A DNA stretch of 46,790 nucleotides from an uncultured Rhodothermales bacterium (GTDB lineage Bacteria > Bacteroidota > Rhodothermia > Rhodothermales > CAYLXM01): the NCBI GenBank assembly GCA_964539455.1, contig CAZIIP010000001.1:104521-151310 (forward strand), written 5' to 3'. The position numbers and the translations under genes were made by a program. The notes beneath the pieces are model-generated. The model searched no databases. It saw only the letters and a list, made by a program, of their open reading frames with translations, and was not told the origin of the DNA. Shown piece by piece: positions 9,950 through 43,530 of the stretch; within the stretch, counting starts at the first letter, position 1; every line of letters starts with the position of its first letter.

Positions 9950-9971
9950 TGAGGTAAAGAGAAGCTAAAAG

Positions 9972-10753: not shown

Positions 10754-10799
10754 GCGCATTTAAGAAGGCCCCGCGGTGTGAAAACCCGGTAGTTTTGCC

Positions 10800-12455
10800 A
10801 TGATCCACGAACGTTTTCAGGAAGTCATAGACAAAGAACGCGACCGAACCGCTGCGTATAGCCGCACCGTTCGGGTCTGCCTCGCGGCGAGCTGCAAGTC
10901 ATCCCGGAGTGACCAAGTGCTCAAGGCGATCAAGGACAAGGTCAAGTCTGGTGATGAGGCCAAAACCTGCGAGGTAAAAGGGGTCGGATGCCTTGGGCTT
11001 TGCTCCCGTGGTCCCCTCGTGGCGATCGACAATATGGACGGGGACCAATCAATCAAGACCCTCTATCAGGATGTCACGCCGGAGCGGGCACCGGAGTTGG
11101 TGACGGATGGCGGAAAGGCGGCAAAGGATCTTGTTTGTCCCTCGGACCTGCCCTTCTTTGCCAAGCAGAAAAAGATCGTTCTCAAAAACAGCGGGCTCAT
11201 CGATCCGGAGCGGATCGAGGAATACATCGCCGCAGGTGGTTATCAGGCGCTGTACAACATTGTCACGGACATCGACCCGTCGCAGGTCGTCGATGAAATC
11301 GTCCGGAGTGGCCTGCGTGGCCGGGGTGGTGGTGGTTATCCTACGGGATTGAAATGGACAACCGTTGCAAAGTCGGAGGCCGTCAAGACCAAGTATGTGA
11401 TCTGCAATGCCGATGAGGGTGACCCCGGAGCCTTCATGGATCGCAGTGTCTTAGAGAGTGATCCGCACCGGGTGCTCGAGGGGATGGCCCTTGCCGGTTT
11501 TGCCGTCGGTGCTACAAAAGGCTATATCTACGTTCGAGGGGAGTATCCGCTTGCCATTGCACGTCTGAAGAAAGCCATTAACCAGGCAAAGCGCTTCGGT
11601 GTGCTGGGCACCGGCATATGCGGTACCACGGTCGATTTTATGGTCGAAATTCGCCTCGGTGCCGGCGCATTCGTATGCGGAGAGGAAACCGCGCTGATCG
11701 CATCGATCGAAGGCCGGCGGGGTCAACCGCGTCCACGTCCCCCCTACCCGGCTGAATTCGGCCTCTGGGGTGAGCCGACACTCATCAACAACGTCGAAAC
11801 CTTCGCCAACATCGTTCCCATTCTGCAGAACGGTGCAGACTGGTTTTCCCGGATCGGAACCGATAAGAGCAAGGGAACGAAGGTGTTCGCGCTGGCCGGT
11901 AATGTTGAAAATACGGGCCTGATCGAAGTCCCGATGGGCATGACACTGTCTGAAATCGTCAACGATATCGCCGGCGGCGTTCCAGGTGGCAGACCGATCA
12001 AGGCGGTTCAGACGGGTGGCCCCTCCGGTGGATGCATCCCGACCGAGCATTTCGAAGCCGGCGTGGGCTACAATTCGCTGCAGGAGCTTGGATCCATCAT
12101 GGGATCCGGCGGCATGATTGTCATGGACGACACCAACAGCATGGTCGACGTGGCCCGCTATTTCATGGAATTCTGCATGTCCGAATCGTGCGGAAGATGC
12201 GTTCCCTGTCGCGTCGGCACCGTTCAGATGCACGAGCTGCTCGACCGCATCTATGAAGGAGAGGCCTCTTCCAAAGACCTCGCCTTGCTTGAAGAACTTT
12301 GTACGGTCGTCAGCAGCATGAGCCTTTGCGGGCTCGGTATGACCGCTCCCAATCCGGTGCGCAGCACGCTGCGCTACTTCAGAAATGAATACCTCGACCG
12401 TCTGGTCGATCACAACGGTTCCGCAGAACCCGAAACCGTGCAAGAAGCGTCATGA
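10800..12455 (+). CDS. hoxF: Hydrogenase diaphorase subunit HoxF (NuoF-like, FMN/NAD(P)H-binding)
   Basis: 551 aa. [24 protein letters not shown], and the 4Fe-4S motif [10 protein letters not shown], plus an N-terminal extra thioredoxin-like 2Fe-2S domain. Confidence 0.95.
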
Positions 12456-13186
12456 TGATGAAAGGGCGCACATCGCGCATTAAAACCCTCAAAATTGACG
12501 GCCAGGATATCGGAGCCAGAGAGGATGAAACCATTCTCGAACTGGCACGCCAGAACGGCATCGATATCCCGACCCTCTGCTACCTCGACGGTGTATCATC
12601 GATCGGCGGATGCCGGCTGTGCATGGTCGAGATCAAAGGTTCGAACAAGCTGCATCCGGCATGCATGACCTACGTCTCCGAAGGGATTGAGGTCGTCACG
12701 CAGTCCGAGCGGCTGGCCCATCACCGGCGCTCTGTGCTCGAATTGCTGTTTTCGGAGCGCAACCACGTATGCGCGGTCTGCGTTTCAAACGGACATTGCG
12801 AACTTCAGCGTTTGGCAACGGATCTCGGCATGACCCACGTCAGCGTCCCGTACAGGCACCCCCGGTTGCCGGTCGACGCAAGCCATCCGAGCTTCGGTCT
12901 CGACCACAATCGCTGTATTCTCTGCACGCGTTGCGTGCGCGTATGTGACGAAATTGAAGGCGCCCACACCTGGGACGTAATGGGTCGCGGTGTAGATGCG
13001 CGCATCGTGGCGGATCTGCACGACCTGTGGGGCAAATCTGAAAGCTGCACCAGTTGCGGCAAGTGTGTCCGGGTGTGCCCTACCGGCGCCCTTTACGAAA
13101 AACGCAGCTCGGTCGCCGAGATGCGCAAGAAGAAGGACTTCCTCCCGTACCTGCAATTAATGCGGGACGAGTCCGACGAGGTCTGA
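12452..13186 (+). CDS. hoxU: Hydrogenase diaphorase subunit HoxU (NuoG N-terminal-like Fe-S protein)
   Basis: 244 aa. 2Fe-2S motif ([18 protein letters not shown]) and two ferredoxin-type 4Fe-4S motifs ([23 protein letters not shown]). Its start overlaps the hoxF stop by 4 nt (12452-12455). Confidence 0.93.
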
Positions 13187-13234
13187 TGGACGGGCGTAAA
13201 CTGATTTTCAACCAATAGCAAGACCGGTTGCCCC

Positions 13235-13768
13235 ATGAGCAAGGTACGACTCGCAACGGCTTGGCTGGACGGATGCTCCGGATGCCATATGTCGTTTCTC
13301 GATCTGGATGAACGGCTGATCGACATTGCCGATATGATCGATGTTGTATATAGCCCCATTGTCGATTTGAAAGACTTCCCCGAGAACGTCGACGTGACAC
13401 TTGTGGAAGGTGCCGTGAGCAACGAGGACGATCTTCAGAAAATCGAGAAGATCCGCGCCCGCACGAAACTCCTAATTTCACTGGGAGATTGTGCCGTGAC
13501 ATCCAACGTCCCGGGTATGCGAAATTACTACAGGATCGAGGACCTCGAAAATCGGGCCTACGTCGAAAACTCAGACATCAACAAAACGGCACCCGACCAG
13601 GTGGTGCCACCTTTGTTGAAGCGTTCAAAACCGATCCACCACGTAGTGGACGTCGACATTTTTCTCCCCGGCTGTCCGCCGCCCGCCGACGCCATCCATC
13701 ATGTATTGTCCGAACTGCTCAACGGACGTACGCCGGATGTAAGGGGCATCTCGCGTTTCGGCGCCTGA
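13235..13768 (+). CDS. hoxY: [NiFe]-hydrogenase small subunit HoxY
   Basis: 177 aa with proximal-cluster cysteines (LDGCSGCHMSFLD, LGDCAV, PGCPP). The size is typical of the group-3 delta subunit. Confidence 0.93.
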   Translation: MSKVRLATAWLDGCSGCHMSFLDLDERLIDIADMIDVVYSPIVDLKDFPENVDVTLVEGAVSNEDDLQKIEKIRARTKLLISLGDCAVTSNVPGMRNYYRIEDLENRAYVENSDINKTAPDQVVPPLLKRSKPIHHVVDVDIFLPGCPPPADAIHHVLSELLNGRTPDVRGISRFGA

Positions 13769-13813
13769 TCCGCTCCCCTGTTTTCAGATCCACCCTGTCG
13801 CGACTGAATAGAG

Positions 13814-15235
13814 ATGAGTAAAACGATCACGATAGACCCGATTACCCGTATCGAGGGACATAGCAAGATCACGATTCAACTGGATGACAAGGGCGTCGTC
13901 CGGGATGCGCGCTTTCACGTGACGCAGTTTCGTGGATTCGAGAAGTTCACGGAAGGCCGCTCTTTCCGCGAAATGCCTTCGCTCACGGCGCGGATTTGTG
14001 GGATCTGCCCGGTCAGTCACCTGATCTCATCATCCAAGGCATGTGACGCCCTACTGGCCGTTGCAATTCCCGAAACGGCTGCCAACCTCCGCAGGATGCT
14101 GAATCTGGCGCAGGTCGCCCAGTCGCACGCGTTGAGTTTCTTCCACCTTTCCGCGCCGGATTTTGTGCTCGGATTCGATTCGGATCCGGCCAAGCGCAAC
14201 ATTCTGGGCATGCTCAAAAAGCATCCCGACCTGGCACGAGACGGGATTATGCTGCGCAAGTTCGGGCAGGAGATTATCCGGATTCTTGGTGGAAAGAAAA
14301 TTCACCCCGCCTGGACCGTACCAGGAGGCGTCAGTTCGCCGCTTTCCGAGGAGGACCATGCTTCCATCAAGGCAGGTATTCCGGAAGCGCTGGAGCAGGC
14401 CCGCAGGACGCTGGACTGGTACAAGAACGTTTTTGGCTCCTTTGAAGACGAGATCCGCACCTTCGCCAACTTCCCGTCCATGTTCATGGGTCAGGTAACC
14501 CCGGAAGGTGAACTCGCACTCTACGACGGCAAGCTTCGGATTGTCGATGCCGTTGGTGAGATCGTGGCCGATCAGCTGGACCCGTCCGACTACCGGGATT
14601 ACATAGGCGAGGCGGTCGAACCCGATTCGTACCTCAAATCTCCGTACTACCGTCCGAAAGGGTATCCGGAAGGCATCTATCGTGTCGGGCCTCTTGCCAG
14701 AATGAACATCGTGTCGCGTGTCGGCACCCCGCTGGCGGATGAGGAATGGGCGGAATTCAGGATGCTGCAGCGCGGTGCGGTACTTAGCTCGTTCCAATAC
14801 CATTATGCTCGCCTTATCGAGTTGCTCCACTGCATCGAAAAAATCGATGAGTTGCTGGATGATCCGAACATTCTGAACACCCATGTCAGGGCATGGGCCG
14901 AGCCCAACCGGCTGGAAGGCGTTGGATGCTCCGAGGCGCCACGCGGTACACTCTTTCACCACTACAAGATTGACCAGAACGGCCTGATCAAGTGGATGAA
15001 CCTGATTATCGCCACCGGACATAACAACCTGGCGATGAATAAAGGGGTGTTGCAGGTGGCGAAGCAGTTCGTCAAAGGGAAGAAGATCAAGGAAGGCATG
15101 CTGAACCGTGTTGAAGCAGTAATCCGGACATTCGATCCCTGCCTGAGTTGTTCGACGCACGCGTACGGACAGATGCCGCTGCATGTGCAACTGATAAGTG
15201 AGGATGGAGAAGTGGTGGACGAGACCTGTTCATAG
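13814..15235 (+). CDS. hoxH: [NiFe]-hydrogenase large subunit HoxH
   Basis: 473 aa. N-terminal Ni-binding motif [10 protein letters not shown] and C-terminal DPCLSCSTH, followed by a 24-aa extension ([24 protein letters not shown]) of the kind removed by a maturation protease. Confidence 0.96.
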
Positions 15236-25166: not shown

Positions 25167-25583
25167 CTAGAGTTTGAGTGCATCTACAATAAATGCACTC
25201 GTGTTGTCGAAACCCGCCTGGAGTGATTTAATCTTAAGCTTCTTCTTCTGATCGGGCGTGAGATGCAACGTCAACCGAACAATTTCCTGACCCGTTGTTT
25301 TCAAATAACCGGTAGACGTCTTCTTGTGGCCCTTTGGCGTCCTCTTACGAGGCGTAGATCTCTTTTTGCCGGCCGGTCGTTTTTTGTCGCCCCCTATTGG
25401 TGGTTTTCCTTCGTTTCGCTCCTTTTGCTCTTTCATCGTCTCCGGAAGTGCTGTTTCACCGTCACCCGTCTCGTTTCCAACTGCATCGCCACCACCCGGG
25501 ACCCGACCGGATACAGGCACCATGGTACGACCGGTTGCGGCTTCCAGTGCTTCCCGTACGCTTGCTCGTCTTCTTTTAGCCAT
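25167..25583 (-). CDS. ParG-like ribbon-helix-helix centromere-binding protein with long basic disordered N-terminal tail
   Basis: 138 aa. The C-terminal VRLTLHLTPDQKKKLKIKSLQAGFDNTSAFIVDALKL has a beta-strand/helix/helix pattern. The N-terminal ~95 aa are Gly/Lys/Pro/Arg-rich. Its start overlaps the parA stop by 8 nt. Confidence 0.65.
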   Translation of the reverse strand: MAKRRRASVREALEAATGRTMVPVSGRVPGGGDAVGNETGDGETALPETMKEQKERNEGKPPIGGDKKRPAGKKRSTPRKRTPKGHKKTSTGYLKTTGQEIVRLTLHLTPDQKKKLKIKSLQAGFDNTSAFIVDALKL

Positions 25584-26382
25584 CTTTCTCTGCCAGCCTG
25601 ATTAGCTCTTCAGCGACCGCCTTGTAGTCGGCCGCACCGTTTCCGTCAGGATCATATTCCAAAATCGTCTCCCCCACCGCGGGTGCCTCTCGAAAACGAA
25701 TCGACTTCCTTACCGGATGCGTCACTCTGTCGCCGTATCGCCCCTCCAGCACGCTCATCACATCGCGTGTAATTAACGTTTGCGATTCGCACATAGTCGG
25801 CAATAGCGCCAGAATACCCGGAGCCAGCCCCCTTGATTGCAAGGCATCTACGGATTCCTGCAACCGACCAAGACCATCCACATCCAGCATGCCCATTGCT
25901 ACCGGCACCACGATCCCACCCTTCCATCCAAACGACTTTAATTCCGTTGCCAGAACGAATGCATTCAGTGCAAGCGCGCCGAGATTTGGCGGACAATCAA
26001 TAATGATCACGTCTCTCTCCAGTGCCAAAAACTCTTTACCCCTGTCACCCAATCGGTATAGCCCGCCACTTAGATCATTTGCAGCATCCCTCTCCGCCTC
26101 AGCCAAACGGGACGTAGAAGCCACAACTGTAATATTCTCCTTCCCTCTTCCTTGCAGCTCCTCTACTACCGATTCGACCCGCGCCTTCTTGTCCATGTAC
26201 AGGGCTGCCGTCCCTCCTTCGCGCACACCGTTCATCCCAAGACTCTTTCCGATATGACCCTGCGGATCGTTGTCCAGTAACAGCACGCGCCGGCCTTTCC
26301 TCGCAAGCGCAGCACCGATTGACACGCACGATGTCGTCTTGCCGACACCCCCTTTCTGATTGGCAAATACAAATACAAACAT
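25576..26382 (-). CDS. parA: ParA-family partition ATPase (small, type Ib-like)
   Basis: Deviant Walker A NQKGGVGKTT right after the internal start at 26382 (MFVFVFANQKGGVGKTT), and Walker B VIIIDCPP. I saw no N-terminal HTH domain. Confidence 0.9.
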   Translation of the reverse strand: MFVFVFANQKGGVGKTTSCVSIGAALARKGRRVLLLDNDPQGHIGKSLGMNGVREGGTAALYMDKKARVESVVEELQGRGKENITVVASTSRLAEAERDAANDLSGGLYRLGDRGKEFLALERDVIIIDCPPNLGALALNAFVLATELKSFGWKGGIVVPVAMGMLDVDGLGRLQESVDALQSRGLAPGILALLPTMCESQTLITRDVMSVLEGRYGDRVTHPVRKSIRFREAPAVGETILEYDPDGNGAADYKAVAEELIRLAEKDG

Positions 26383-26445
26383 GCCTTTTCTTTCGGTACA
26401 ACCTCCTCTATTAGGTGCACAGATACGATCGGTACTACCGCTATT

Positions 26446-26656
26446 TACCACCATACCGATTATACCACCTATACCGCATAATACGCAAATTGACGCTTAT
26501 CTCCTCTACCACTCATAACCTTACTATTCATTATACCACTCTTATACCTATAACTATATCTACCCATGATACACATATAACTACGATGGTTCATACGATT
26601 CATACTATGAATAATAGCTATACATACTGTATGATCGGTAGTAGTACCCATACCAC
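26446..26656. repeat. Centromere-like/operator repeat region upstream of parA
   Basis: TACCAC hexamer occurs 5 times in direct orientation (26446, 26463, 26507, 26533, 26651), along with multiple (T/C)ATACC units and short dyads (TTCATACTATGAA, CATACTGTATG). The plus strand is strongly G-poor: I count 6 G in the 130 nt 26441-26570. Confidence 0.55.
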
Positions 26657-27258
26657 TACGACCATTAGCACCGAATCTCAATATCACGTGATTGGTTCTC
26701 ATTTCCGATTTAACGGAAGCGACCCTTGACATGGGTGGGAGGCTGCCTTTATTGCTTGTCGTTTGTTAGATCGAATCTCATGCATCTCTGTGCCCTGTTG
26801 TTCGTTGACATTGTCGATTCGAAGCCACTCCGTTACTTCTACTTTCACGTGTCTATTTACCAGGCCGATGCAAGACGTCTACAGGCCTGGTATGCACACT
26901 AACACATTCATACATTTCTTTCAGTTTCGCGGTGACGAACCGAGCTTGAATGATCAATGCAATCGGCGTGTATCCGAATGGAAGAACGCAGCCGACAGAA
27001 CAATCAAAAATGTCGAATGCATTCGGACCGATAAAACTGAATGTATGGAAGGTTTCTGTATTTCCTTCTGAGTTCTGAGAGGGAGGTGCATCGTGGCATT
27101 TCCGTGGTATCATCATGCGGGGAGCATATCCTATACGGTGACGACCGTTTGCGTTCAAGGCGCGTACCAGGAGGGGATCAGCATTACAGCCGAAACAGAA
27201 AGGAGTAGCAAAACCGGTTGTTCAACAAGTGGAAAAGAAACGACGACGACGAATGAAG

Positions 27259-27842
27259 GAACAGATATGTGGGGTAGTGTTTGTGTTTTTGTTTAATCAT
27301 GTTTAAAACCGTTTGGCGATTTGGTACACATTAGAATTAATAGATTTGCATTGGGTAAAGGCATAACGGTTTGGGGTGGTGGGCAAGTGTTTGTGGGGTG
27401 AAAGGCATAGAAATATGGGAGCAAAAGCACGGGTATGTGGGGAAAAAGCAAGGAAATGTGGGGTGCTCGCTTTCTGGTGAGATTCTTTAAATGATGAAAG
27501 AAGCATAGAGATGTGGGTGAATGCCATGTCTGGTTGTGTATTAAAAGCATAGAGATATGGGTGACTAAGGAGGTGGCCAACACTTTGGGCATAGAAATAT
27601 GGGTCATGTGTGTGTTTCTTCATGTTATCTTCATAAACATAGGGATGTGGGGCAGGAATGATCAATTTTTGCGGTTGAAAGGTATAGGTGCGTGGGGATT
27701 GTGTGCATAAACGGCTTCTGTCTCCACATTGAAGCATAGATGCGTGGGGAATCGTTGATGTGATGGCATAGAAACGTGGGGAGCGCATTTCATTTCCGAG
27801 TACCGTGCTGCACCACAAACACAAAGGCATAGAGATGTGGGG
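27259..27842 (+). repeat. Iteron array (14 direct 16-mers, consensus GCATAGARATGTGGGG) = plasmid-type origin
   Basis: Copies start at 27259, 27361, 27383, 27405, 27427, 27448, 27503, 27547, 27589, 27637, 27682, 27734, 27766 and 27827, all in the same orientation. Start-to-start spacings are 22, 22, 22, 21, 55, 44, 42, 48, 45, 52, 32 and 61. The array ends 73 bp before the rep start. Confidence 0.85.
27278..27350. other. AT/T-rich stretch inside the iteron region (possible DNA unwinding element)
   Basis: GTGTTTGTGTTTTTGTTTAATCATGTTTAAAACCGTTTGG...ATTAGAATTAATAGATTTGCATT, lying between the first and second iterons. Confidence 0.35.
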
Positions 27843-27914
27843 TGTTACTCCTGTGCCTAACGGCATATATTCGCGGCGAGCCGATTGAAATGATTAACCC
27901 GCAATTATACGGGC

Positions 27915-29207
27915 ATGTCTCTGCTAGTCGAGAACAGGCGCGAGCTTAAGAAGCACGTCGGTGCGGTGCACACGCATGGAAAGCTGACGTTGCTTCAACG
28001 AAAGGTGGCGAATATTCTTATTCTCAATGCTTACAATGAATTACCTACAAAGGATGAGTACCAGATAAGGATCAGGGATCTGGCAGAGATCGCGGGATTC
28101 GACAGCAAGAACATCAAGGTACTCAAGGATTCTTTGCGTGGACTCATGCGCATTGTTATAGAGTGGAATGTACTTGATGAGGCAGGAAAGGAGGAGTGGG
28201 GTGCCAGTCCTATGCTTGCCCAGGCGGTTATAAAGAAGGGCAGTTCACATTTCACCTATTCGATAAGTCCTGTGCTCAGACGGAGGTTATACTCCCCAGA
28301 AATCTATGCCCGAATCAACCTGAGCATCCAGCGACGATTCAGAAGCGGTTATGCGCTGGCACTGTATGAGAACTGTGTTCGTTTTCGCAATGTGGGTACT
28401 ACCGGATGGATAGATCTTGAGACGTGGAGGAAACTGCTCGGCGTAGAAGCCGAGCAATACGCAGCATTCAAGTCGTTTTCGCAGTGGGTGTTAAAGCCGG
28501 CCATCAAGGAGGTCAGCAAGCACTCCGATATCAAGGTTACGGTCGAATACAGGCGTAGGAAGCGCCGTGTGGTGGCCATGCGCTTTAAAATCTTGGACAA
28601 TCCGGCATTCGACGGGATTGATCGGAATGCTCTGCCGATCGCACAGAAGAAGAAGAAAGGCAACGGATCGGCCACGCTGGACATGTTTCAGCAGAGCAAT
28701 CCGCTTGCCCGCCGGCTTGGTACGTTTGGCTTGTCTGCCGTCCAGGTCAAGAGTGTGCTGGACGAGCACGATGAGTCGTACGTAAAGGAGAAACTTGATT
28801 TTGTGGAAAGCGAACTCAAGTCGGGAAGACTCATCAGGAACGTGCCGGGATTTACGCTAAAGGCGCTTGAAAAGGATTACCGGCCTCGGCAGGGCAATGT
28901 CTCGGTTGGAAAGAAAATCAAGGAAGGAGATGGTCGGGCGGCCCTCGACGCCAAGCGAATGAAACGGGCGGAGGAACGGTCACAAAGGCTGGAAGCGTTA
29001 TATGCCGGATTATCCGAGTGGGAGCGATCGAGAGTAGATGAGCGCGTGATCGCCAGGCTGCGCGAGGAAATCGGCGGTGTGGCCTGGAATGCCTATCGCA
29101 GAGCGAGTGAGGCAGGGGAGGGGGAGGATCAGATGCCTGTGATCGTCAGGGGCACTTTGCGCAGTCTCAGACTGGAAGTGGTCGAGCAAATGGAGACGGC
29201 GGTTTAA
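27915..29207 (+). CDS. Replication initiator protein (Rep_3/RepB-like, iteron-binding)
   Basis: 430 aa. The N-terminal two winged-helix-like segments are typical of Rep_3 initiators (LTLLQRKVANILILNAY...IRIRDLAEIAGF...LKDSLRGLM; FKSFSQWVLKPAIKEVSKHSDIKVTVEYRRRKRRVVAMRFKI). It sits immediately downstream of the iterons. Confidence 0.8.
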   Translation: MSLLVENRRELKKHVGAVHTHGKLTLLQRKVANILILNAYNELPTKDEYQIRIRDLAEIAGFDSKNIKVLKDSLRGLMRIVIEWNVLDEAGKEEWGASPMLAQAVIKKGSSHFTYSISPVLRRRLYSPEIYARINLSIQRRFRSGYALALYENCVRFRNVGTTGWIDLETWRKLLGVEAEQYAAFKSFSQWVLKPAIKEVSKHSDIKVTVEYRRRKRRVVAMRFKILDNPAFDGIDRNALPIAQKKKKGNGSATLDMFQQSNPLARRLGTFGLSAVQVKSVLDEHDESYVKEKLDFVESELKSGRLIRNVPGFTLKALEKDYRPRQGNVSVGKKIKEGDGRAALDAKRMKRAEERSQRLEALYAGLSEWERSRVDERVIARLREEIGGVAWNAYRRASEAGEGEDQMPVIVRGTLRSLRLEVVEQMETAV

Positions 29208-31955: not shown

Positions 31956-31971
31956 GCATAGATATATGGGG
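31956..31971 (+). repeat. Orphan iteron copy
   Basis: GCATAGATATATGGGG matches the 16-mer iteron consensus at 14-15 positions, in the same orientation as the array. It lies in the ggt/nuclease intergenic region, 4.1 kb from the array. Confidence 0.6.
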
Positions 31972-34416: not shown

Positions 34417-34615
34417 GTTGTGCGGCTTGTTGCGTGAAGGAGTCGGGGGCGGCGAACAACGCGTCGGGTCCGGCCCGGTACATGATAATGCTTTCGGACG
34501 AGCCGGCAAGCCGGATTTGCCGATGCCTCCGATTTACCGCCTGACCTGAACACGCATGGAGCAGGGGAGAGAGTATGCAACAGTCAAAGAGAATCTATTG
34601 GAACACAATCAGGCA

Positions 34616-34649
34616 ACACATATATTAAACACATGTGTGAAATATGTGT
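34616..34649 (+). promoter_or_regulatory. Composite operator candidate upstream of imuB
   Basis: ACACAT at 34616 and 34629, and ATGTGT at 34633 and 34644 (11-bp period). The central pair forms the palindrome ACACATGTGT and the outer arms ACACATAT/ATATGTGT are complementary. Positions 34633-34647 are identical to 43505-43519. Confidence 0.6.
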
Positions 34650-34664
34650 ATCGCCTGGTTTAAT

Positions 34665-35795
34665 ATGATTGCCTGTCTTCACATAAGGGATTATCCGGCA
34701 TGGGTCATGCGGTATCGTTATCCGGATGCTGCGCTTGCGGTATTTCACCGGGGGCGTATTCTGGCCAGGAATCGGAAGGCACGGCGGAAGGTGCAAGTGG
34801 GAGAGTTGGTCGAGCGTGCACGTTCGGCGCATCCGGAGGTGCAGTTTCTGGGGCGGGACACGCATGAGGAGGAGATTCGCTGGGAGTATGTACTCGAGAA
34901 GATCAACCGGTATACGCCGCTGGTTGAATCTGCAGTGCCCGGCACGGCCTATTTCCAGCCGCTTGAGGGTCGGGTGCCGGCGCCGCCGGCACGGGAGTTG
35001 TCGGTGCGGGTTGGTGCCGGACCGTCTCGTGCAGTGGCCCGCATTGCGGCCGCCCGTACCCACGACGGGCATTTTCTCGAGATCGCCCCGCGAGGCGTGC
35101 GAACGTTTTTGCGGGCATCGCCCGTTTCGACACTCTGTGACCTGGGATTTCCGGAAGAGATGGTCGAGCGGCTGACCCTTTTCGGGCTGGACAATCTGGA
35201 GCGTATCAGGCAACTGACGCGACGACATCTGACTGCCCAGTTCGGTGCGGATGGTGAGGCGCTGCATGATTTACTGGATTTGCAGAAGACCGACCCGCCC
35301 ATTGCCGTCTACCGCCCGTCTCCAGCGATTTTATGTTTTGTGGATTTCGAGAACGACGTCATCGAGCCGGCGGATATTCTTCCCGCCCTGCAGCATCTGG
35401 TAAGTGAGGCGAGGGACGCGCTCGAGGGACTGGTGACCTCCCGCATCACCCTCGAAACAACGGGCAAAAGCGAAGGGGCAAACCGGATATGCTCGGCAGT
35501 ACTTAAATCCGGCACCTCCGATGCGGGGATCCTCTTTCGCGCGGCGGAACGAAGGCTGAAGAAAAACTGGCCACAGGCGGCGATTTCCCGGATTCGTCTC
35601 ATTCTGGGTGCACTGGGTTATGCCAGGCACCACCAGGGCGCCCTGTTCTTCCAGCGGCCGGACGTCCAGACGGCTGTTCGCCGTGTCCACCGCCGGTATC
35701 CCAATGCTCTGCTGCGTGTCGTGCCGGCAGAGCGGCGGTTGCCGCTCGAGGAGGCCGACGGGTTGTCGTTTGTGCCATACCGCTCCGCCTCATGA
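34665..35795 (+). CDS. imuB: ImuB-like Y-family polymerase homolog (catalytically inactive type)
   Basis: Start MIACLHIRDYPAW (34665; the ORF opens at 34644). Y-family-like fold without the DMDAFF acidic motif seen in dinB. It is followed by dnaE2 in the same orientation. Confidence 0.75.
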   Translation: MIACLHIRDYPAWVMRYRYPDAALAVFHRGRILARNRKARRKVQVGELVERARSAHPEVQFLGRDTHEEEIRWEYVLEKINRYTPLVESAVPGTAYFQPLEGRVPAPPARELSVRVGAGPSRAVARIAAARTHDGHFLEIAPRGVRTFLRASPVSTLCDLGFPEEMVERLTLFGLDNLERIRQLTRRHLTAQFGADGEALHDLLDLQKTDPPIAVYRPSPAILCFVDFENDVIEPADILPALQHLVSEARDALEGLVTSRITLETTGKSEGANRICSAVLKSGTSDAGILFRAAERRLKKNWPQAAISRIRLILGALGYARHHQGALFFQRPDVQTAVRRVHRRYPNALLRVVPAERRLPLEEADGLSFVPYRSAS

Positions 35796-36025
35796 AACGC
35801 ATTGATGAACCGATACGGGTACAGACGAGCGGCAAACGCATCGAAGCCGTCTACTGGCACGGCCGCCGCATTGCGGTGCACGAGCAGACGAATGCGTGGA
35901 TTGTCCGCAGCCGGTGGTGGGGAAGTGAAGAGAAACGGATTTATCGGACGCTGCAGACGGATAAAGGCCATATGGAGGTGTACCAGGTCGGTGATTTGTG
36001 GCGATTGAGCCGCCTGGCGGATTAA
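35792..36025 (+). CDS. Small Trp/Arg-rich protein embedded between imuB and dnaE2
   Basis: 77 aa. Its ATG overlaps the imuB stop (ATGA at 35792-35795) and its stop lies 2 nt before the dnaE2 ATG (36028). Sequence: IEAVYWHGRRIAVHEQTNAWIVRSRWWGSEEKRIYRTLQTDKGHMEVYQV. Confidence 0.6.
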   Translation: MKRIDEPIRVQTSGKRIEAVYWHGRRIAVHEQTNAWIVRSRWWGSEEKRIYRTLQTDKGHMEVYQVGDLWRLSRLAD

Positions 36026-36027
36026 AA

Positions 36028-39000
36028 ATGTTCACTCATCTACACGTACGAAGCTGGTTTTCGTTTTTGCGGGGTGCGTCGCCTCCCGACCAACTGGTCG
36101 AGCAGGCCGCCGCCCTGGGGATGCGTGCGCTGGCGATTACCGATATCAAGGGCATGTACGGCGTGGTGCGCCACCAGCTTGCGTGCAAGGAGCATGGACT
36201 GAAGCCGGTATTCGGCGCCGAGGTGGTGGTCGGGGGTCGGCCCCTCGTACTGCTGGCAAAAACGCGGACAGGGTATGCAAACATTTGCCGCCTTTTAACC
36301 CAGGGATTTCAGCGGACGGAGACGCCCGAGTCGGACGTACGGGTTGAAGAACTGGCTGCGGTGGGCGAGGACGTTATCTGTTTGACGGGAGGTGCGGAAG
36401 GGCTGCTGTGGGATGCGGTGCATCGCAAGGCGTATCCGAAGGCACGAAACTGGGTCGATCATCTGCGGGGAATTTTCGGTCGAAACCTGTACGTTGAGCT
36501 GACGAACCAGCTTCGTCCGGACGACCGGCGGATGGTTACGCGCATGGCGCGCTTTGCGTCCGAGTGCCGTCTGCAGGTGGTGGCGACGGGAGATGTCCGC
36601 TATGCCACACCGGAAGGGTATGCCCTCTATGATCTGATGACGTGTATTCGCACCCACCAGACAATCTTTGAGGGCCATCCGGAGCGTCCGGTAAACGACC
36701 AGGCCTTTTTGCGTCCCGAGGCGGAGCTTCGCCGGTTGATTCCGCATCCTGAAGCGTTTCGCAACGCGGAGCGGATCGAAGCATCCTGCTGCGTGGATCT
36801 CTTGCCCGAGTACATCACCCCACCCGGGGCACGCCTGCCGGCGGGCGTTTTGCCCGAGACACATTTGCGAAAACTGTGCGACGAGGGGTTAAAGACCCGC
36901 TACGCAGCCGGGGAGCGCAAACGGGCACGGGCGCAGATGGAAAGAGAGTTGAAAGTGATCTGCGGACTGGAATTGGAGGAGTTCTTTTTGGTCGTTCGCG
37001 AAGTGGTAGATGAGGCCGCCAGAAGAAACATCCGGTGTGCCGGTCGGGGATCGGCCGCCAACAGCATCGTGGCCTATCTGCTGGGCATCACCCATGTCGA
37101 TCCGATTGCTCACCGGCTTCTCTTCGAGCGCTTTCTGCATCAGGGACGAAAAGGGACGCCGGATATCGACATCGATTTCGATTCGGACCGGCGCCTGGAG
37201 ATCGTCGAGTGGATAGAGGACCGGTTCGGCGTCGAGCAGACGGCCATGTCGGCGACGCTGCAGACCTACCAGTTGCGGTCCGCCCTTCGGGATGTCGCAA
37301 AAGCCCTGGGTTATCCGGAGCAGGTGCTGCGGGCCTTCAGTACAGCTGTGCCGCATCGGCCCGCTACCCGGATCGACGAATACAGGGAGCAGGTCATCAG
37401 CATTCTCGGTGGAGAAACCCCGCTGGCCAGGGCGCTGGTCGAAGGTGTGTGGGCACTCGCCGGATGTCCACGGCACCTCGGACAGCACTCGGGGGGCATG
37501 GTGCTGTCACGCGCACACCTCCATGCGTTTACACCGGTGCAGACCTCGGCGAACGGTGTAAAGATGGTCCAGTTTGACAAACGCGACATCGAGCGGCTGG
37601 GACTGGTCAAACTCGATGTGCTGGGACTTCGTATGCTGGCGGCACTGAGCTTCGCCGAGGAGTTGATCCAGCGCACCCATCCCGAGCCGTTTAATCTCGA
37701 TAAGGTACCGCTGGACGACCGGCCGACGTTCGATATGATCCGGGCAGGGGAGACGATCGGGCTGTTTCAGATCGAATCACAGGGCCAGTTGCATTTGCTG
37801 GCGATGAACCAGCCCGAGACGTTTCAGGATTTGATCGCGGAGATCGCGCTGTTTCGTCCGGGGCCCGTTCAGGGCGGCATGGTTCGTCCCTTCGTGCGGA
37901 GAAGAAAAGGGCAGGAGCGGGTGCAGTTTCAGGATCCGTCGCTGGAACCGATTCTGAAGGACACCTATGGGATTATCCTGTTTCAGGAACAGGTGCTGGA
38001 GGTCGCTCACAAATTCGCCGGCATGAGCCTGCAGGAAGCGGACGATTTCAGGGCGCTGATGTCGAAGTTTCGGGATCCGGGTCAAATGGAATCGATGCGC
38101 ACGGTGTTCGTCAACGGCGCCATGCGGCGCGGTGTATCGGAGAAGGTAGCCCAGGAAGTGTTCGAAAAGGTCTCGAAGTTCGTCGGCTACGGCTTTTGCC
38201 GAAGCCATGCCGCAGCATTCGCCAAAACCGTCTTCCAGTCCGCTTATCTGAAGAAGCACTTTCCTGCCGCCTACATGGCGGCGGTTATGCAGCACATGCC
38301 CGGCATGTATCCGGTCATGACCCTCGAACAGGAGGCAAAACGGCTGGGTGTGCAGGTGTTGTCGCCCGACGTCAACCACAGCGGGATCCTGTATGATCTA
38401 GAGCACCGGGGATATGGCGTGTATGCGATTCGCAAGCCGCTGACGTCGATCAAGGCGGTTTCATTGGAATCGGCGCGGACCATCTTTTTGGAGCGCCTGA
38501 AGGGGCCGTTCAAAGATGTCGAGGACTTTTACCGGCGCTGTGCGGTGGACAAGGATGCCATGGAAAACATCGCCCGGTCGGGTGCGCTGGACGAACTGAC
38601 ACACGGCAGCAGGAAGGCGCTCTGGGAAGTGGGCGTTCTGCACCGAAGACTGGGCACAGCCGGCCGAATAGATCCGCAACAGCACCTTTTCAGCATGCAG
38701 GCACTAGAAGCGGTCGATCTGCCTGCGCTGGCGGAGCTGGGAATCGACGAGCGGCTGAGCTGGGACTATCAGACGCATGGTGCGGCGCGACATCATCCCA
38801 TGACCGTTGTCCGGCGCCAGCTGAATGAACTGGAAGTCCGTCCGGTCAGCGTCTGTTACCAGTACGCACAACCCGCACTGCGTGGCAAGGCGCCCGTGAT
38901 CCAGACGGCCGGCATCGTCATCCTGCGCCAGCGACCGCCGACGGCAAAGGGATTCATGTTCATCACCCTGGAAGACGAGACGGGTTTTATTCAGTGTGTC

Positions 39001-39216
39001 GTCAATCCGCAGGCACAGGATCTTTACGGTCACATGCTCAACAGCGCCGCCCTGATCGTTCAGGGCGAACTGCAGTCCGAGAAAAACTGGCGCGGCATCA
39101 TCCTGCAGCAGGCCTGGCGACTGGATGCCGTTTTTGGCGGATACAAAGGACATGCAAGCTACAGTGGCGGTAGAGACAGGCACGTTGTGTCGACTGCCGA
39201 CGCAGTCAATTCATGA
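36028..39216 (+). CDS. dnaE2: Error-prone DNA polymerase III alpha homolog DnaE2 (ImuC)
   Basis: About 1062 aa from MFTHLHVRSWFSFLRGAS (PHP domain). Pol III alpha core motifs and an OB-fold C-terminus. It lies in a cassette with imuB. Confidence 0.92.
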   Translation: MFTHLHVRSWFSFLRGASPPDQLVEQAAALGMRALAITDIKGMYGVVRHQLACKEHGLKPVFGAEVVVGGRPLVLLAKTRTGYANICRLLTQGFQRTETPESDVRVEELAAVGEDVICLTGGAEGLLWDAVHRKAYPKARNWVDHLRGIFGRNLYVELTNQLRPDDRRMVTRMARFASECRLQVVATGDVRYATPEGYALYDLMTCIRTHQTIFEGHPERPVNDQAFLRPEAELRRLIPHPEAFRNAERIEASCCVDLLPEYITPPGARLPAGVLPETHLRKLCDEGLKTRYAAGERKRARAQMERELKVICGLELEEFFLVVREVVDEAARRNIRCAGRGSAANSIVAYLLGITHVDPIAHRLLFERFLHQGRKGTPDIDIDFDSDRRLEIVEWIEDRFGVEQTAMSATLQTYQLRSALRDVAKALGYPEQVLRAFSTAVPHRPATRIDEYREQVISILGGETPLARALVEGVWALAGCPRHLGQHSGGMVLSRAHLHAFTPVQTSANGVKMVQFDKRDIERLGLVKLDVLGLRMLAALSFAEELIQRTHPEPFNLDKVPLDDRPTFDMIRAGETIGLFQIESQGQLHLLAMNQPETFQDLIAEIALFRPGPVQGGMVRPFVRRRKGQERVQFQDPSLEPILKDTYGIILFQEQVLEVAHKFAGMSLQEADDFRALMSKFRDPGQMESMRTVFVNGAMRRGVSEKVAQEVFEKVSKFVGYGFCRSHAAAFAKTVFQSAYLKKHFPAAYMAAVMQHMPGMYPVMTLEQEAKRLGVQVLSPDVNHSGILYDLEHRGYGVYAIRKPLTSIKAVSLESARTIFLERLKGPFKDVEDFYRRCAVDKDAMENIARSGALDELTHGSRKALWEVGVLHRRLGTAGRIDPQQHLFSMQALEAVDLPALAELGIDERLSWDYQTHGAARHHPMTVVRRQLNELEVRPVSVCYQYAQPALRGKAPVIQTAGIVILRQRPPTAKGFMFITLEDETGFIQCVVNPQAQDLYGHMLNSAALIVQGELQSEKNWRGIILQQAWRLDAVFGGYKGHASYSGGRDRHVVSTADAVNS

Positions 39217-39516
39217 ACCATGAATTGAACCCGCACTACCCGCTTCAACGATCGACTCACCCGCAACCACAAAGATCTTGTCTCCCGGCGCAGGGGTGAA
39301 GCGTCTGTTTCCGGTAAACGTTCCGAAAGCGGGGAAAATGGCGCGCCGCTCTCCCATCACGAAACAGGGGAGACGAAGACGCTGCTGCGCGCCTCCGGAG
39401 AATGAGATGCCGGCGTGGATATGACCGGAGATGACGTAGCCCGGTGGGAGATTGTCTGTATCAACAGCCGAACACTGCCTTTTCTGAAAAGTGCCGCGTT
39501 GCTCACTGTACGTCAT
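39211..39516 (-). pseudogene. C-terminal remnant of a PdeM-like (ligase-associated) metallophosphoesterase
   Basis: SGHIHAGISFSGGAQQRLRLPCFVMGERRAIFPAFGTFTGN matches my recollection of the C-terminal part of PdeM-type phosphoesterases. The N-terminal metal-binding motifs (DxH, GDxxH, GNHD) are absent. The only ATG (39516) overlaps the last codons of the Prim-Pol gene. Confidence 0.4.
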
Positions 39517-41014
39517 TTCCGGGGAAAAGCGGCATCTGGTCCTCCGATGTTGAAGCGCCCTCCCCGTCCGGTTCACTTCCGGATGTAAGGGCGGAGCCCT
39601 GTGCATCCTGAAACAGGCCGGGCTGATCGAAGCGGTATTCGAATCCGTGCCGTTGCAGTACGATCAATGATTTTCGCGGAGTCTCATCAAACCGGCTCTT
39701 GGTCAGCAGTACGCGTTCCCGCGTATGGTCACCAACCTGCTCCAGATGCACCTTAATGTCGACAAATGGATCGAGGGGTGTATCCGGAATGCGCCCTTGT
39801 GAGGTATTGTCGGAAGGGAGATCCCACACGGCAAAGAGGCCGACGCCTCGCAAAATGGCTTTCAGCAGAGGCTGCATGACGTAGTCCGCATCTACCTGCC
39901 GGGAGCCGTCCATCACCTCGCGTCCGGCGAAAGCATTCAGCCGGTCGATAACAATCAGGCGTGCCTTTACGGTAGTGCAGCGATCCACTGCGGCCGCGAT
40001 CAGCTTTGGCCAGGACACATCCAGTGACTCCTGATAGTGAAGCACGTGAAGCCTGTTGAGAAACAGATGGTTGTAGCCGCGGGCCAGAATGGCCCTGCCC
40101 AGGGACGCCGGCGATTCCGACGTGAGAAGCACGACACTTCCCTGAACGGATCTGCGCGTCAGGAATTCGGAGCCCTCCAGCACTGAGCGGATGAGATGAA
40201 GCGCGAAGGTGGTTCTCCCGCTGCCTTTTTCCGTTCCGTGCAGCAAGGTAATTGCCTGGGTAGCCGCCCAGGGTTCATTGATCCATATGCTCGAATTGTC
40301 CGCCGCCACGTCGAATCCCGTGCGGAACGGCAAATCCGGCATTTCCTCGCCCATTTCTGTCTGGGCTTTGTTCTCCGTGCGGGTACGAACGCGCAAATTG
40401 CATCTTCGGAGAATCCATCCGGGGACGGGCGCAACGGAGGTCTGCCGGATGGTCGCACCTGGGTCCCACGAGCTCTCTTCCCAGCGATCCCCGTACAGGT
40501 GAACGGACGGTGGTGCGAAAACCACTTCTCCTTCTCCCAGAAGCGTAATGCCGGGTGCGATAGGTGTCGAACCGGCCGGCATTGCTGATGGATCGGCCGA
40601 AAACAGGTGGACAAGCCGGTCGGAGGACGCCAGGATGGTTGGCGTCTTCGGAAGCATCCCGTGCATGATCTCGAGTTCGTTGGCGCTCGCCAAACCGTCT
40701 CGTCCGTCTATCAGCAGCGCGACCAGGCGTGCATCGGCGCCCAGCGCCATACCAATGCGTGCATGGGGGTGGGTTTGCCACCAGCGCTCTATGTGATCGC
40801 GGTTGGAGGTGGCCCTGTCGATTCCAAAGTATTGACAGCGTGTGGAGGGCTGCCGGCAGTCGGCATTCGAGAGTTCACAAATGCATTCTCCGGCACGTCT
40901 CCTGCCTCTGCGGACGGACGGCAGCGGCAGGACAGGATATCCGAGTTCCGCAATTTCCAGTGCCGCCCGTCTCAGTCGCTCTCCAACTCTGTCGGTTCGT
41001 CCGTTTTCAGCCAT
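39503..41014 (-). CDS. Bifunctional Prim-Pol (archaeo-eukaryotic primase-like) / RecA-like AAA_25 ATPase fusion
   Basis: 503 aa. The N-terminal Prim-Pol-like region has ELGYPVLPLP, ERWW, IGMALG, LLIDGRDG, LVHLF and VVFAPPSVH. The C-terminal P-loop domain has LLHGTEKGSGRTTFALHLI and Walker B RLIVIDRLNAF. Confidence 0.75.
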   Translation of the reverse strand: MAENGRTDRVGERLRRAALEIAELGYPVLPLPSVRRGRRRAGECICELSNADCRQPSTRCQYFGIDRATSNRDHIERWWQTHPHARIGMALGADARLVALLIDGRDGLASANELEIMHGMLPKTPTILASSDRLVHLFSADPSAMPAGSTPIAPGITLLGEGEVVFAPPSVHLYGDRWEESSWDPGATIRQTSVAPVPGWILRRCNLRVRTRTENKAQTEMGEEMPDLPFRTGFDVAADNSSIWINEPWAATQAITLLHGTEKGSGRTTFALHLIRSVLEGSEFLTRRSVQGSVVLLTSESPASLGRAILARGYNHLFLNRLHVLHYQESLDVSWPKLIAAAVDRCTTVKARLIVIDRLNAFAGREVMDGSRQVDADYVMQPLLKAILRGVGLFAVWDLPSDNTSQGRIPDTPLDPFVDIKVHLEQVGDHTRERVLLTKSRFDETPRKSLIVLQRHGFEYRFDQPGLFQDAQGSALTSGSEPDGEGASTSEDQMPLFPGNDVQ

Positions 41015-41700: not shown

Positions 41701-43176
41701 CTACATGGCGCCGAGTTTCTGCAAGAGTTCCTCCACGAGATCATCGAGATCATCGTCGACATCCCGGAGGTTTTCGATCGATTGGACGCCGTGCATGACC
41801 GAAGAGTGGTCGCGCCCGTCAAAGAATGCGGCGATCTTCGTATAGGTATCATATGACACGACCCGGGCCAGATACATGGCGATATGGCGGGCCTGCACGT
41901 GTGGTCGCTTGCGGCTGCGGCCACGCATCACATCGACAGGCACCTGGGTCTGCTCGCTGACCAAACGCGCGATGTCCTTCAAATGAATGGCCCCGAGTGC
42001 TTCGCCCGTAACTTCCGCAATCAGTGTGCCAATAGCAGGTACTTCAAATCCGAATTTGCTCTCCGCCAGCAGCCGGTTGAGAATGCCTTCGATCTGCCTG
42101 ACGCTTCCCCGTGTGCGCGCAATCGTGTCGATCGTCTCGGCGTCCAGATCGAGATCCAACTCGGAAGCCCGCTGTTCTACAATTTGCCGGCGTGTGTCAA
42201 ATCCGGGAGGCGACAGTTCAGCCATTACACCTCCTTGAAATCTGGAGACCAGGGATGTGTTGAGTCCCGGAATCCTGGTTGGTTGTTGGTCGAAGGAGAG
42301 TACAACTTGCTTGTTCTCGTATATCAGGCTGTTGAAAACGACAGCGAACTGGTCCTGGATTTTCTGCGTGCGCCCCAGAAACTGAACGTCGTCGACGATG
42401 AGCAGGTCCAGATGCGCGAAAGACTTTACGAAAGAATGCGCTGACTTTCCTTTAAGAGAACTAACAAATGATGAAGCAAACCTCTCGGTAGTGAGGTACC
42501 GGACCGATCTGTTTTGGCTGTAGGCCATCTGCCCGATGGCCTGCAACAGATGCGTTTTACCGACACCCGAAGTTCCGTAAATAATGAGCGGATTGAACGT
42601 GTGCGCGTCGCGTGCACTTACCAGCATCTTGCCTATGCCGGCAGCAACCTGGTTGCAACGGCCTTCAACGAAACGCTCGAACGAATACTGACGCTGAAGA
42701 CCGATCTCCGCCTGTGCCTGAATGCGCGAAGCGGTCTTGGCAACGGCCACCTCCCGTCCGTTACTTGTGCCGTTCTCCCTGGAAAGTCCGACCGACCGTA
42801 ATTCATGGTTAATCGGACGCGTTCGGGCGGCAACCGCACCATCGCCGGTATTCGTGGTCCTTTCCTCCTCAACAAATCCGATGCGTACCGGGTGGCCCAG
42901 CACAGAAGCCGAGGCGGATGCAATATCCACACGGCGCTTCAAATAATCGCGGTGAAACCGGTTGGGGACGACCAGTTTGAAGACCTCGTGATCGAGCGAA
43001 CGCGCTATAACCGGCTCAATCCAGGTATTGAACTCCACTTCAGTGAGCTGGTCCTTGAGGACCTTCTTGCACTCCCGCCAGGCTTGTTCAGGGTTGAGAG
43101 ACAGGTTGTTTGTAGCAGGTGCGGGAACGGTCATTAAGGTTGGTGCTAAAGGGCGTTTCGCAAGGGCAATTTCCAA
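41701..43176 (-). CDS. dnaA: Chromosomal replication initiator protein DnaA
   Basis: 491 aa. AAA+ Walker A GTSGVGKTHLL, and a domain IV DNA-binding signature (RQIAMYLARVV-like HIAMYLARVVS, DHSSVMHGVQSI). Confidence 0.96.
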   Translation of the reverse strand: MEIALAKRPLAPTLMTVPAPATNNLSLNPEQAWRECKKVLKDQLTEVEFNTWIEPVIARSLDHEVFKLVVPNRFHRDYLKRRVDIASASASVLGHPVRIGFVEEERTTNTGDGAVAARTRPINHELRSVGLSRENGTSNGREVAVAKTASRIQAQAEIGLQRQYSFERFVEGRCNQVAAGIGKMLVSARDAHTFNPLIIYGTSGVGKTHLLQAIGQMAYSQNRSVRYLTTERFASSFVSSLKGKSAHSFVKSFAHLDLLIVDDVQFLGRTQKIQDQFAVVFNSLIYENKQVVLSFDQQPTRIPGLNTSLVSRFQGGVMAELSPPGFDTRRQIVEQRASELDLDLDAETIDTIARTRGSVRQIEGILNRLLAESKFGFEVPAIGTLIAEVTGEALGAIHLKDIARLVSEQTQVPVDVMRGRSRKRPHVQARHIAMYLARVVSYDTYTKIAAFFDGRDHSSVMHGVQSIENLRDVDDDLDDLVEELLQKLGAM

Positions 43177-43234
43177 TATCTATTTCGGCGTTCAGATTAG
43201 AAACTCTGGTCGATTCGAGGCAACCTAAATCTGA

Positions 43235-43404: not shown

Positions 43405-43504
43405 ACTTCCACAGTGTTGACAACGGAGATACCCACGTACAGGGGTTTCCCAACAATTTGTAAACACTCCCCCGGCCCCGAGCGTTAAGAGTGTCTTTTT
43501 CAAT

Positions 43505-43519: not shown

Positions 43520-43530
43520 AATTTGACGAC

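Follow-up and report, generated by a model that had tools for sequence, protein, structure and literature searches.

A stretch of DNA of 46,790 nt from an uncultured Rhodothermales bacterium (GTDB lineage Bacteria; Bacteroidota; Rhodothermia; Rhodothermales; CAYLXM01), called the window here, spans positions 104,521 to 151,310 of the forward strand of contig CAZIIP010000001.1 (GCA_964539455.1) and harbors a 4.04-kb replication and partition module at window positions 25167-29207, between polA and a CBM9 gene. A preliminary description of this DNA listed a ParA protein, a small ribbon-helix-helix (RHH) protein, centromere-like repeats, iterons and a Rep initiator in plasmid order, and every one of these elements is found where it had been placed. 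The replicon that bears gyrA, polA, uvrB and dnaA probably uses the module as a working origin and for segregation; the module would be an anciently domesticated Rep_3 iteron origin joined to a type Ib-like partition cassette.

The steps by which such a locus would act can be proposed from the known workings of these families. Rep monomers would bind the 14 iterons, and Rep on the five tandem 21-22-bp iterons would melt the adjoining 73% AT element. The host helicase would be loaded next, possibly aided by DnaA at a conserved TCCACA, and bidirectional replication from the Rep origin would follow. The TACC array upstream of parA, phased at 9 bp, would double as centromere and operator and be bound by the RHH protein, whose basic N-terminal tail would stimulate the ParA ATPase, leading to segregation of the origin region.

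The Module Is Shared by Diverged Lineages

The left border of the module is the stop codon of the RHH gene, which lies 93 nt from the likely polA ATG at 25073 (the start was placed by alignment to the homolog P0121), close to the roughly 95 bp noted earlier; on the right, the next gene is the CBM9 gene, convergent to rep. Both borders recur in relatives. L081 (sample SRR14492170) has the order gyrA-polA-(radical SAM)-RHH-parA-TACC repeats-spacer-iterons-rep, with identities to the window of 67.5% for ParA, 43% for the RHH protein, 82% for the Rep N-terminus and 68% for the GyrA C-terminus. L082 (sample SRR15144438) carries gyrA (76% identical) and polA (64%), and L088, from the same sample, has iterons and rep (69%) followed, as in the window, by a convergent CBM9 gene (62%). 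The order shared across lineages, pieced together from these three, is gyrA-polA-RHH-parA-repeats-iterons-rep-CBM9. L081 thus repeats the left junction (polA...parA-ori-rep) and L088 the right one (rep-CBM9), and the two come from different samples and diverged lineages. A radical SAM gene stands on the opposite strand between the RHH gene and polA of L081 (3632-4696) and is missing from the window, so the RHH-polA junction is not strictly invariant.

The window PolA is 50-54% identical to many Rhodothermales PolA proteins and 64% identical to two metagenomic ones; the L081 and L082 proteins are 70% identical to each other and each 64% to that of the window, which makes three distinct lineages. 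Module genes (ParA 67.5%, Rep 69-82%) and housekeeping genes (PolA 64%, GyrA 68-76%) are similarly conserved. Among Rep proteins, P0002 and P0003 are 79% identical to each other and each 68-71% to the window Rep; the Rep and PolA patterns fit co-divergence, although P0003 is not tied to the L081 lineage. Elsewhere in Rhodothermales polA lies in a different neighborhood, HAD-hyp-polA-desaturase-CrcB, without Rep or ParA. The comparison of synteny with close relatives, proposed in the preliminary description, therefore finds the same arrangement in L081 and L082/L088 and no module at polA in other Rhodothermales.

Recurring junctions and housekeeping-like divergence argue that the module is old, vertically inherited and selectively maintained. 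Its absence from the polA loci of other Rhodothermales, together with the plasmid location of Rep relatives, points to capture from a plasmid in the ancestor of the clade. No integrase or transposase was found among the scanned window open reading frames (ORFs) of at least 150 aa, no further plasmid gene in Pfam-type scans of the window ORFs, and no tRNA gene or Rfam family in scans of the window, in agreement with the preliminary description, which had recognized no integrase, transposase or tRNA site. A tRNA attachment site was considered and is rejected, since neither tRNA genes nor Rfam families turned up. In an old, vertically inherited module, a missing integrase or attachment site is expected. 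Of the earlier proposal of an integrated or captured plasmid replicon, capture from a plasmid family holds, given the RepB-type relatives described below; a recent insertion by unexplained means does not, as diverged lineages share the junctions. Judged by these comparisons, the module is an old, fixed, bare replicon kept beside polA and not a recent insertion.

A Rep_3 Initiator Beside an Iteron Origin

The rep gene (27915-29207, + strand) encodes a 430-aa iteron-type initiator. The profile search suggested for it returns Pfam Rep3_N (PF01051; E 6.9e-20, 72.3 bits, cutoff 22.4) and Rep3_C (PF21205; E 8.6e-17, 61.6 bits, cutoff 21.1), both far above the gathering scores; by these profiles the protein carries the tandem winged-helix domains, WH1 and WH2, of Rep_3 initiators, at residues 11-226. 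A search of PDB sequences with Rep gives no match at E<=0.01. Past WH2, residues ~230-430 form a conserved C-terminal extension of ~200 aa with the motifs NVPGFTLKALEKDYRP and MPVIVRGTLRSLRLE; alignments A1 and A3 show the first motif region to be common to the Rep family at large and the last to be kept within the clade. This extension has no Pfam domain match.

Rep is 68-81% identical to its clade relatives and at most 51% identical to other homologs. The plasmid-database comparison proposed earlier gives a divided answer: blastn against PLSDB finds nothing but a 70-bp conserved coding stretch, whereas at the protein level the best PLSDB matches are 36-40% identical "RepB family" initiators of plasmids of 100-470 kb. 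In species-representative genomes, the family is found in Rhodothermales/Rubricoccaceae metagenome-assembled genomes (MAGs), in Competibacteraceae and on Burkholderia/Paraburkholderia plasmids; scans of metagenome contigs with Rep, as a single sequence or as the clade alignment, gave no matches. One homolog (P0010, 47% identity) lies among type IV secretion system (T4SS) and relaxase genes, another (P0025) on a 183-kb contig with metabolic genes, and at four more (L003, L021, L055, L078) parA is opposite in strand to rep and 1.4-2 kb upstream. Rep homologs outside the clade are otherwise located on a conjugative plasmid and on contigs resembling megaplasmids. The module follows the layout usual for the Rep family and, by these relationships, is of plasmid origin.

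In the window, parA and rep are separated by 1.5 kb of non-coding DNA in which four parts can be distinguished. GC content over 26-28.5 kb is 0.44-0.48, compared with ~0.56 in the flanks, so the AT-richer block seen earlier from about 26400 to 28500 is real; the dip is restricted to the non-coding origin and centromere region. The 14 iterons, at 27259-27842, all lie on the + strand and have the consensus GCATAGrnrTGTGGGG, with 17 matches in the whole window against 1.0 expected; the earlier count of 14 direct 16-mers ahead of the 430-aa ORF, and their coordinates, were correct. The distal iteron 1 (27259-27274) stands with a ACGACGACGACGAA box in a segment (27240-27274, + strand) that is invariant between the window and L081. 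Next comes an AT-rich candidate DNA-unwinding element, TTTTGTTTAA..GTTTAAAA (27280-27355), a block conserved in L081; no 60-mer of the intergenic DNA is richer in AT than 27288-27347 (73% AT), which lies here, between iteron 1 and the tandem array. Five tandem iterons (27361-27463, + strand) follow at spacings of 22, 22, 22 and 21 bp, and eight further direct iterons (27503-27842, + strand), 32-61 bp apart, end 73 bp upstream of rep. Three features of a Rep_3-type origin are present in the sequence: a WH1+WH2 initiator, a direct iteron array beside rep and a flanking AT-rich element that is a candidate for unwinding.

In a three-way alignment of the window, L081 and L088, the iteron cores GCAyAG...TGGGG are invariant while iteron centers and spacers vary; a TCTTCA..TCTTCA motif and the AT-rich block of the origin are also invariant between relatives. 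Invariant cores amid varying spacers are the pattern of selection on a working origin, unlike that of a decaying relic. The same alignment shows an invariant TCCACA in all three lineages; located at 27720-27728, between the iterons at 27682 and 27734, it resembles a DnaA box with 2 mismatches to TTATCCACA. Within the origin there are only near-matches to the DnaA box, TTATGCACA at 27702 and GTCTCCACA at 27720, and boxes with at most one mismatch are not enriched in the window as a whole. The variable spacer on the parA side (26721-27239), ~0.5 kb here and ~1.1 kb in L081, has no conserved coding potential, and blastn and tblastx of 26.7-27.25 kb against L081 give nothing significant. Sigma-70 promoter scans scored below chance level, the sigma-70 model being uninformative for this phylum.

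A Partition Cassette of Type Ib-Like Architecture

The parA gene (25576-26382, - strand) encodes a 268-aa protein with the deviant Walker A motif KGGVGKTT. Compared with the ParA/CbiA families, as had been advised, it matches AAA_31 (6.5e-26) and CbiA (2.2e-17), and its matches among PDB sequences are to ParA/Soj. Small and devoid of an N-terminal helix-turn-helix (HTH), it is of type Ib size. Downstream, and overlapping the parA stop by 8 nt, lies the gene for a 138-aa, ParG-like candidate centromere-binding protein (25167-25583, - strand), with a conserved basic motif at the N-terminus (MAKRRRAS), followed by a linker of low complexity and, at the C-terminus, a modeled RHH domain. Its family is small, with 15 representatives among 1.84 billion proteins; their alignment has a basic N-terminus MAKRxRA, a variable linker and the C-terminus KTSTGY..G..VRLTLHLTP.QK..LK...L.AGFDN.SAYVV..L.L.

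The preliminary description had called the end of this protein RHH-like, a claim that structure prediction moderately supports. An AlphaFold2 (AF2) model from the single sequence is uninformative, with a predicted local distance difference test score (pLDDT) of 59; with the 15-sequence alignment (A7), residues 100-138 form a strand-helix-helix at pLDDT 89-97. The best-aligned PDB structures in Foldseek are RHH domains, those of NikR, MazE-mt1, AtaR, PrpA/ParD, VapB and ParD2, with a root-mean-square deviation of 1.2-2.3 Å over 34-37 residues and a probability of up to 0.96; E stays at 0.5 or above because the RHH domain is tiny. Sequence searches add little: the protein has no Pfam or NCBIfam hit and only sub-threshold matches to NikA-like and TacA1 profiles, and PDB sequence searches with it or its profile return nothing useful. 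On the strength of the model, we assign an RHH domain to its C-terminus with moderate confidence.

Upstream of parA, the repeat-rich, G-poor stretch noted earlier is borne out as a centromere- or operator-like region (26383-26720), an (A)TACC array phased at ~9-bp multiples that includes the conserved TACTACCGCTATT. Over 26383-26730 the strand is 12% G and carries 11 copies of TACC (2.4 expected) and 13 of ATAC (2.6 expected), counts reached in 0 of 2000 shuffles. L081 has the same motifs, strand bias and 9/18/27-bp spacing upstream of its parA, in a sequence that is not alignable. In architecture the par cassette is type Ib-like; by sequence it falls outside the ParG and omega families.

Strand Composition Changes Sign at the Rep Origin

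When read on the + strand, GC skew at third codon positions (GC3 skew) has a negative sign in most genes to the left of the module and a positive one in 11/11 genes to its right, regardless of gene strand. A change-point scan over gene boundaries places the best break at parA|rep (-0.063 vs +0.140; gene-order permutation p=0.03); excluding the module genes shifts the break to the adjacent boundary (p=0.02). In a regression, side has an effect of 0.096±0.021 (p=1e-4) and strand has no significant one. Fourfold-degenerate sites show the same contrast between sides (Mann-Whitney p=3.5e-4), and there is no effect of side on TA skew at these sites. From minus to plus is the sign expected of an origin with forks leaving both ways. 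The L081 genes left of the origin have the corresponding sign. A dnaA-PrimPol-dnaE2 segment in another relative, L089, has the opposite skew relative to gene direction, which indicates that skew follows replicon position and not the genes themselves. No skew flip occurs at the dnaA upstream region, either in the window or in the relative L090, and the switch itself (26.4-27.9 kb) lacks the DnaA-box cluster of a canonical oriC.

The sign change at parA|rep makes the Rep origin most likely the main fork-divergence site and not a silent passenger. The preliminary description had envisaged a possible second, Rep-dependent origin; the skew switch favors the origin role, and that wording is probably too weak.

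Other points weigh against an active Rep origin. We infer origin firing from these patterns. The skew is seen over 46.8 kb and is asymmetric, with a weak left arm, and the permutation p is only ~0.02-0.03. Two left-arm genes are exceptions, among them DUF2461 at +0.21, and the genes show no preference for the direction of the proposed forks. A similar skew change could arise at the boundary of a local rearrangement, Rep could be retained for some function other than replication, such as that of a repressor, and a canonical oriC could be present in a conserved DnaA-box cluster located 15.3-15.6 kb from the iteron array.

Iteron Cores Outside the Array

The core GCATAG-N5-TGGGG occurs 6 times in the window (0.03 expected), and three copies lie outside the array. 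One is inverted and internal to rep (28294-28309, - strand), where it encodes SPEIYA; it has an equal offset in the L088 rep (L088 710-725). Another, GCATAGATATATGGGG (31956-31971, + strand), is intergenic, with iteron-like flanks, in the GGT/SNase gap ~2.7 kb right of rep. The third lies in the DUF72 gene adjoining dnaA (45269-45284, + strand) and recurs at the equivalent position in L089 (439-454) and L090 (2857-2872). All five copies of the intragenic cores, in rep and DUF72, use the rare proline codon CCA (9% of Pro codons), and the same 16 nt are used by 0/48 other Rep homologs encoding PEIYA. Position conservation and CCA usage suggest selection at the DNA level for the intragenic cores, and hint that the outlying cores are candidate extra Rep-binding sites for titration, handcuffing or coordination.

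A Divergent dnaA and a Cluster of Repair Genes

An intact dnaA gene (41701-43176, - strand) lies about 14.5-15 kb from rep and the Rep origin. Its product is divergent: TIGR00362 scores it at 353 bits (cutoff 343.9), in line with the 332-360 bits of its clade relatives, whereas ordinary DnaA proteins, including that of a Rhodothermales MAG, score 498-547. Identity is 56-75% within the clade and 29-39% to any DnaA outside it; for the window PolA, by comparison, identity to Rhodothermales PolA is 53%. DnaA keeps the Walker A/B, arginine-finger and domain IV DNA-binding motifs, and its gene is not followed by dnaN. With a DnaA this atypical and fast-evolving, a distance of 15 kb from dnaA, mentioned in the preliminary description, does not establish a canonical oriC nearby.

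In the region upstream of dnaA (43177-43530), an AT-rich stretch accompanies at least 4 DnaA boxes. The boxes include an inverted pair, TTGTCCACA/TGTGGAGAA, and TGTGGATAAG, and are kept in L089 (1122-1798) and L090 (3540-4119). Their conservation implies that a DnaA-dependent element exists, either an autoregulated promoter or an oriC.

Synteny around dnaA is conserved in the clade as DUF72-dnaA-small ORF-PrimPol/AAA_25-dnaE2. The Prim-Pol + AAA_25 gene (39503-41014, - strand; L089 6074-7612), a primase-helicase of the type found on plasmids and integrative and conjugative elements (ICEs), keeps its place with dnaA and dnaE2; in L089 an Lhr-type helicase gene stands between it and the small ORF downstream of dnaA. 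An error-prone polymerase cassette (an imuA-like gene, doubtful, with imuB and dnaE2) occupies 34584-39216. In L042, a Rubricoccaceae MAG, imuB-dnaE2-PrimPol-parA-small ORF-rep are contiguous (1664-11254), which hints at a recurrent link between the Rep family and mutasome/Prim-Pol genes. The Y-family polymerase gene dinB (43531-44586, + strand), between DUF72 and dnaA, is not at that position in L089 and L090, and L090 has lexA just upstream of DUF72.

Replication and repair genes are unusually dense within these 47 kb, from 2176-25148 and rightwards: uvrB, the gene for a parC-like topoisomerase IV A subunit, nth, gyrA and polA, and further right imuB, dnaE2, dnaA and dinB. Core genes on the same contig are gyrA, dnaA, polA, uvrB and the parC-like gene, and the window GyrA is fully canonical (TIGR01063 about 1159-1200 bits, cutoff 902). 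The left arm also has a hoxEFUYH-like operon for a bidirectional NAD-linked [NiFe] hydrogenase (10244-15235, + strand), with the most negative GC3 skew of that arm.

Chromosome, Chromid or Passenger

If the module is the working origin of its replicon, that replicon may, tentatively, be the main chromosome of the clade, replicated and segregated from the domesticated Rep_3 origin; a plasmid origin would then have stably replaced or overridden oriC, leaving DnaA accessory or regulatory. An accessory role would explain the exceptional divergence of DnaA, and with Rep driving the chromosome, the sites in rep, in the intergenic region and in the dnaA-neighbor gene could titrate or coordinate Rep. 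The density of housekeeping genes and the canonical GyrA favor a main chromosome. On the other side, the aberrant DnaA, the plasmid-like Prim-Pol gene, the rearranged polA context and the 151-kb contig keep a chromid plausible.

A chromid, that is, a secondary plasmid-derived replicon with core genes, on which Rep/Par would be the native origin and a canonical dnaA/oriC chromosome would lie elsewhere, is a serious but doubtful possibility. It shares its mechanism with the preferred explanation and differs from it only in which replicon is served. A set of gyrA, polA, uvrB and dnaA, which we take to be normally single-copy markers, together with parC and nth within 47 kb, has a density more typical of origin-proximal chromosome, and GyrA is fully canonical. 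That DnaA, aberrant at 353 bits and 29-39% identity outside the clade, could nevertheless be a paralog, and its gene adjoins the plasmid-like Prim-Pol/AAA_25 gene in place of dnaN. The polA neighborhood is unlike the ancestral Rhodothermales one, relatives of this Rep run plasmids of 100-470 kb, and the contig spans only 151 kb. Plasmid-type rep and par plus core genes is also the working definition of a chromid (PMC12456017, PMC6090056), although in a published survey Rep_3 replicons were found together with universal single-copy genes less often than other replicons were (PMC10645730).

It is unlikely that the module is silent or a relic, with Rep autorepressed or the origin handcuffed and replication starting at a DnaA-dependent oriC at 43.2-43.5 kb or outside the window. 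The DnaA boxes (at least 4) with their AT-rich stretch upstream of dnaA in three lineages would suit such a start, as would the retention of the Walker A/B, arginine-finger and DNA-binding motifs by DnaA, and one of the two origins of natural single-chromosome Vibrio cholerae can be silent (PMC6284228). A relic should decay, yet Rep, ParA, the RHH protein, iteron cores and the AT block are conserved at ~36% PolA divergence, and the skew switches at the module and not upstream of dnaA in the window or L090.

An assembly chimera, which the preliminary description had offered as an alternative, or a recent plasmid insertion in this genome alone could draw on the local GC fall to 0.44-0.48, the plasmid type of Rep and the want of a close DNA match in plasmid databases beyond the 70-bp conserved stretch, but is scarcely credible: the independent assemblies of L081, L082 and L088 hold both junctions again and refute it, the window scans found no integrase, transposase, tRNA or other plasmid gene, and the GC dip is confined to non-coding origin and centromere DNA.

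Comparison With Known Systems

Type Ib partition systems, such as ParF/ParG-parH of TP228, ParA/ParB of pB171 par2 and delta/omega of pSM19035, have a small deviant-Walker-A ParA, a downstream dimeric RHH protein with a flexible basic N-terminal tail, and a centromere of short iterated motifs upstream of parA. The cassette described here is like them in its small ParA, the downstream small RHH protein (modeled) and the repeats upstream of parA, a putative operator. Unlike ParG and omega, its RHH protein has no membership in those families by sequence and belongs to a family of 15 representatives; the repeat motif is TACC at 9-bp phasing on a G-poor strand, where binding is predicted.

In E. 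coli mutants whose DnaA/oriC has failed, the chromosome can be run from the origin of an F or R1 plasmid that has integrated, which is known as integrative suppression. The likeness lies in a chromosome-embedded plasmid origin able to take over replication; unlike those laboratory mutants, the arrangement here is natural, minimal and conserved across diverged lineages. Ectopic chromosomal origins have been reviewed (PMC7174701).

The module as a whole compares closely with the RepB/Rep_3 iteron replicons, accompanied by a par operon, that Rhodobacterales and Burkholderiaceae have on large low-copy plasmids and on chromids (PMC9025767), a family that runs replicons of 100-470 kb. The module shares with them the WH1+WH2 initiator, the direct iterons and AT-rich element that precede rep, and the par cassette alongside. 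It differs in its Rep, 36-40% identical to any PLSDB Rep and at most 51% outside the clade; in being a 4-kb minimum between polA and CBM9, inherited vertically with housekeeping genes; and in pairing ParA with a small RHH protein instead of an HTH ParB.

Vibrio chromosome 2, with its RctB/iteron origin and ParAB2, is a plasmid-derived origin and par system that has been domesticated and has essential genes aboard, as here (PMC6090056). A natural single-chromosome V. cholerae, with ori1 and ori2 on one molecule, likewise combines a Rep-type origin and the DnaA machinery (PMC6284228). The outlying iterons are possibly comparable to the Vibrio 39-mers and crtS. Unlike in Vibrio, the initiator is Rep_3 and not RctB, the phylum is Rhodothermota, and the Rep origin, where the skew switches, lies only ~15 kb from dnaA; evidence of methylation or crtS-type control is absent at the window locus.

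Bacterial main chromosomes are taken to initiate at DnaA/oriC, and plasmid-type initiators are a hallmark of secondary replicons. Surveys treat DnaA as the chromosome marker and plasmid Rep + Par as the chromid marker, and some tools sort replicons in this way (PMC12456017); Rep_3 replicons, moreover, rarely carry universal single-copy genes (PMC10645730). The locus breaks both rules of thumb. If the Rep origin fires, this is either a natural takeover of a chromosome by a plasmid origin or an unusually core-gene-rich Rep_3 chromid, and either bears on origin replacement, on the tolerance of multi-origin or hybrid replicons and on how MAG pipelines handle contigs with both Rep and DnaA. At 4 kb, the module is also a candidate for a compact replicon and partition cassette in vectors for Rhodothermales. 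Our literature searches found no description of the clade or the arrangement, and a limited one found no Rep_3 chromid described in the phylum. Precedents exist for iteron replicons, for type Ib partition, for chromids and for plasmid origins within chromosomes (PMC6090056, PMC6284228, PMC7174701); what is new is the combination of a minimal Rep_3 replicon that has become fixed next to polA, a dnaA gene carried by the replicon as well, and a skew switch located at the Rep origin, along with the phylum and the small RHH family.

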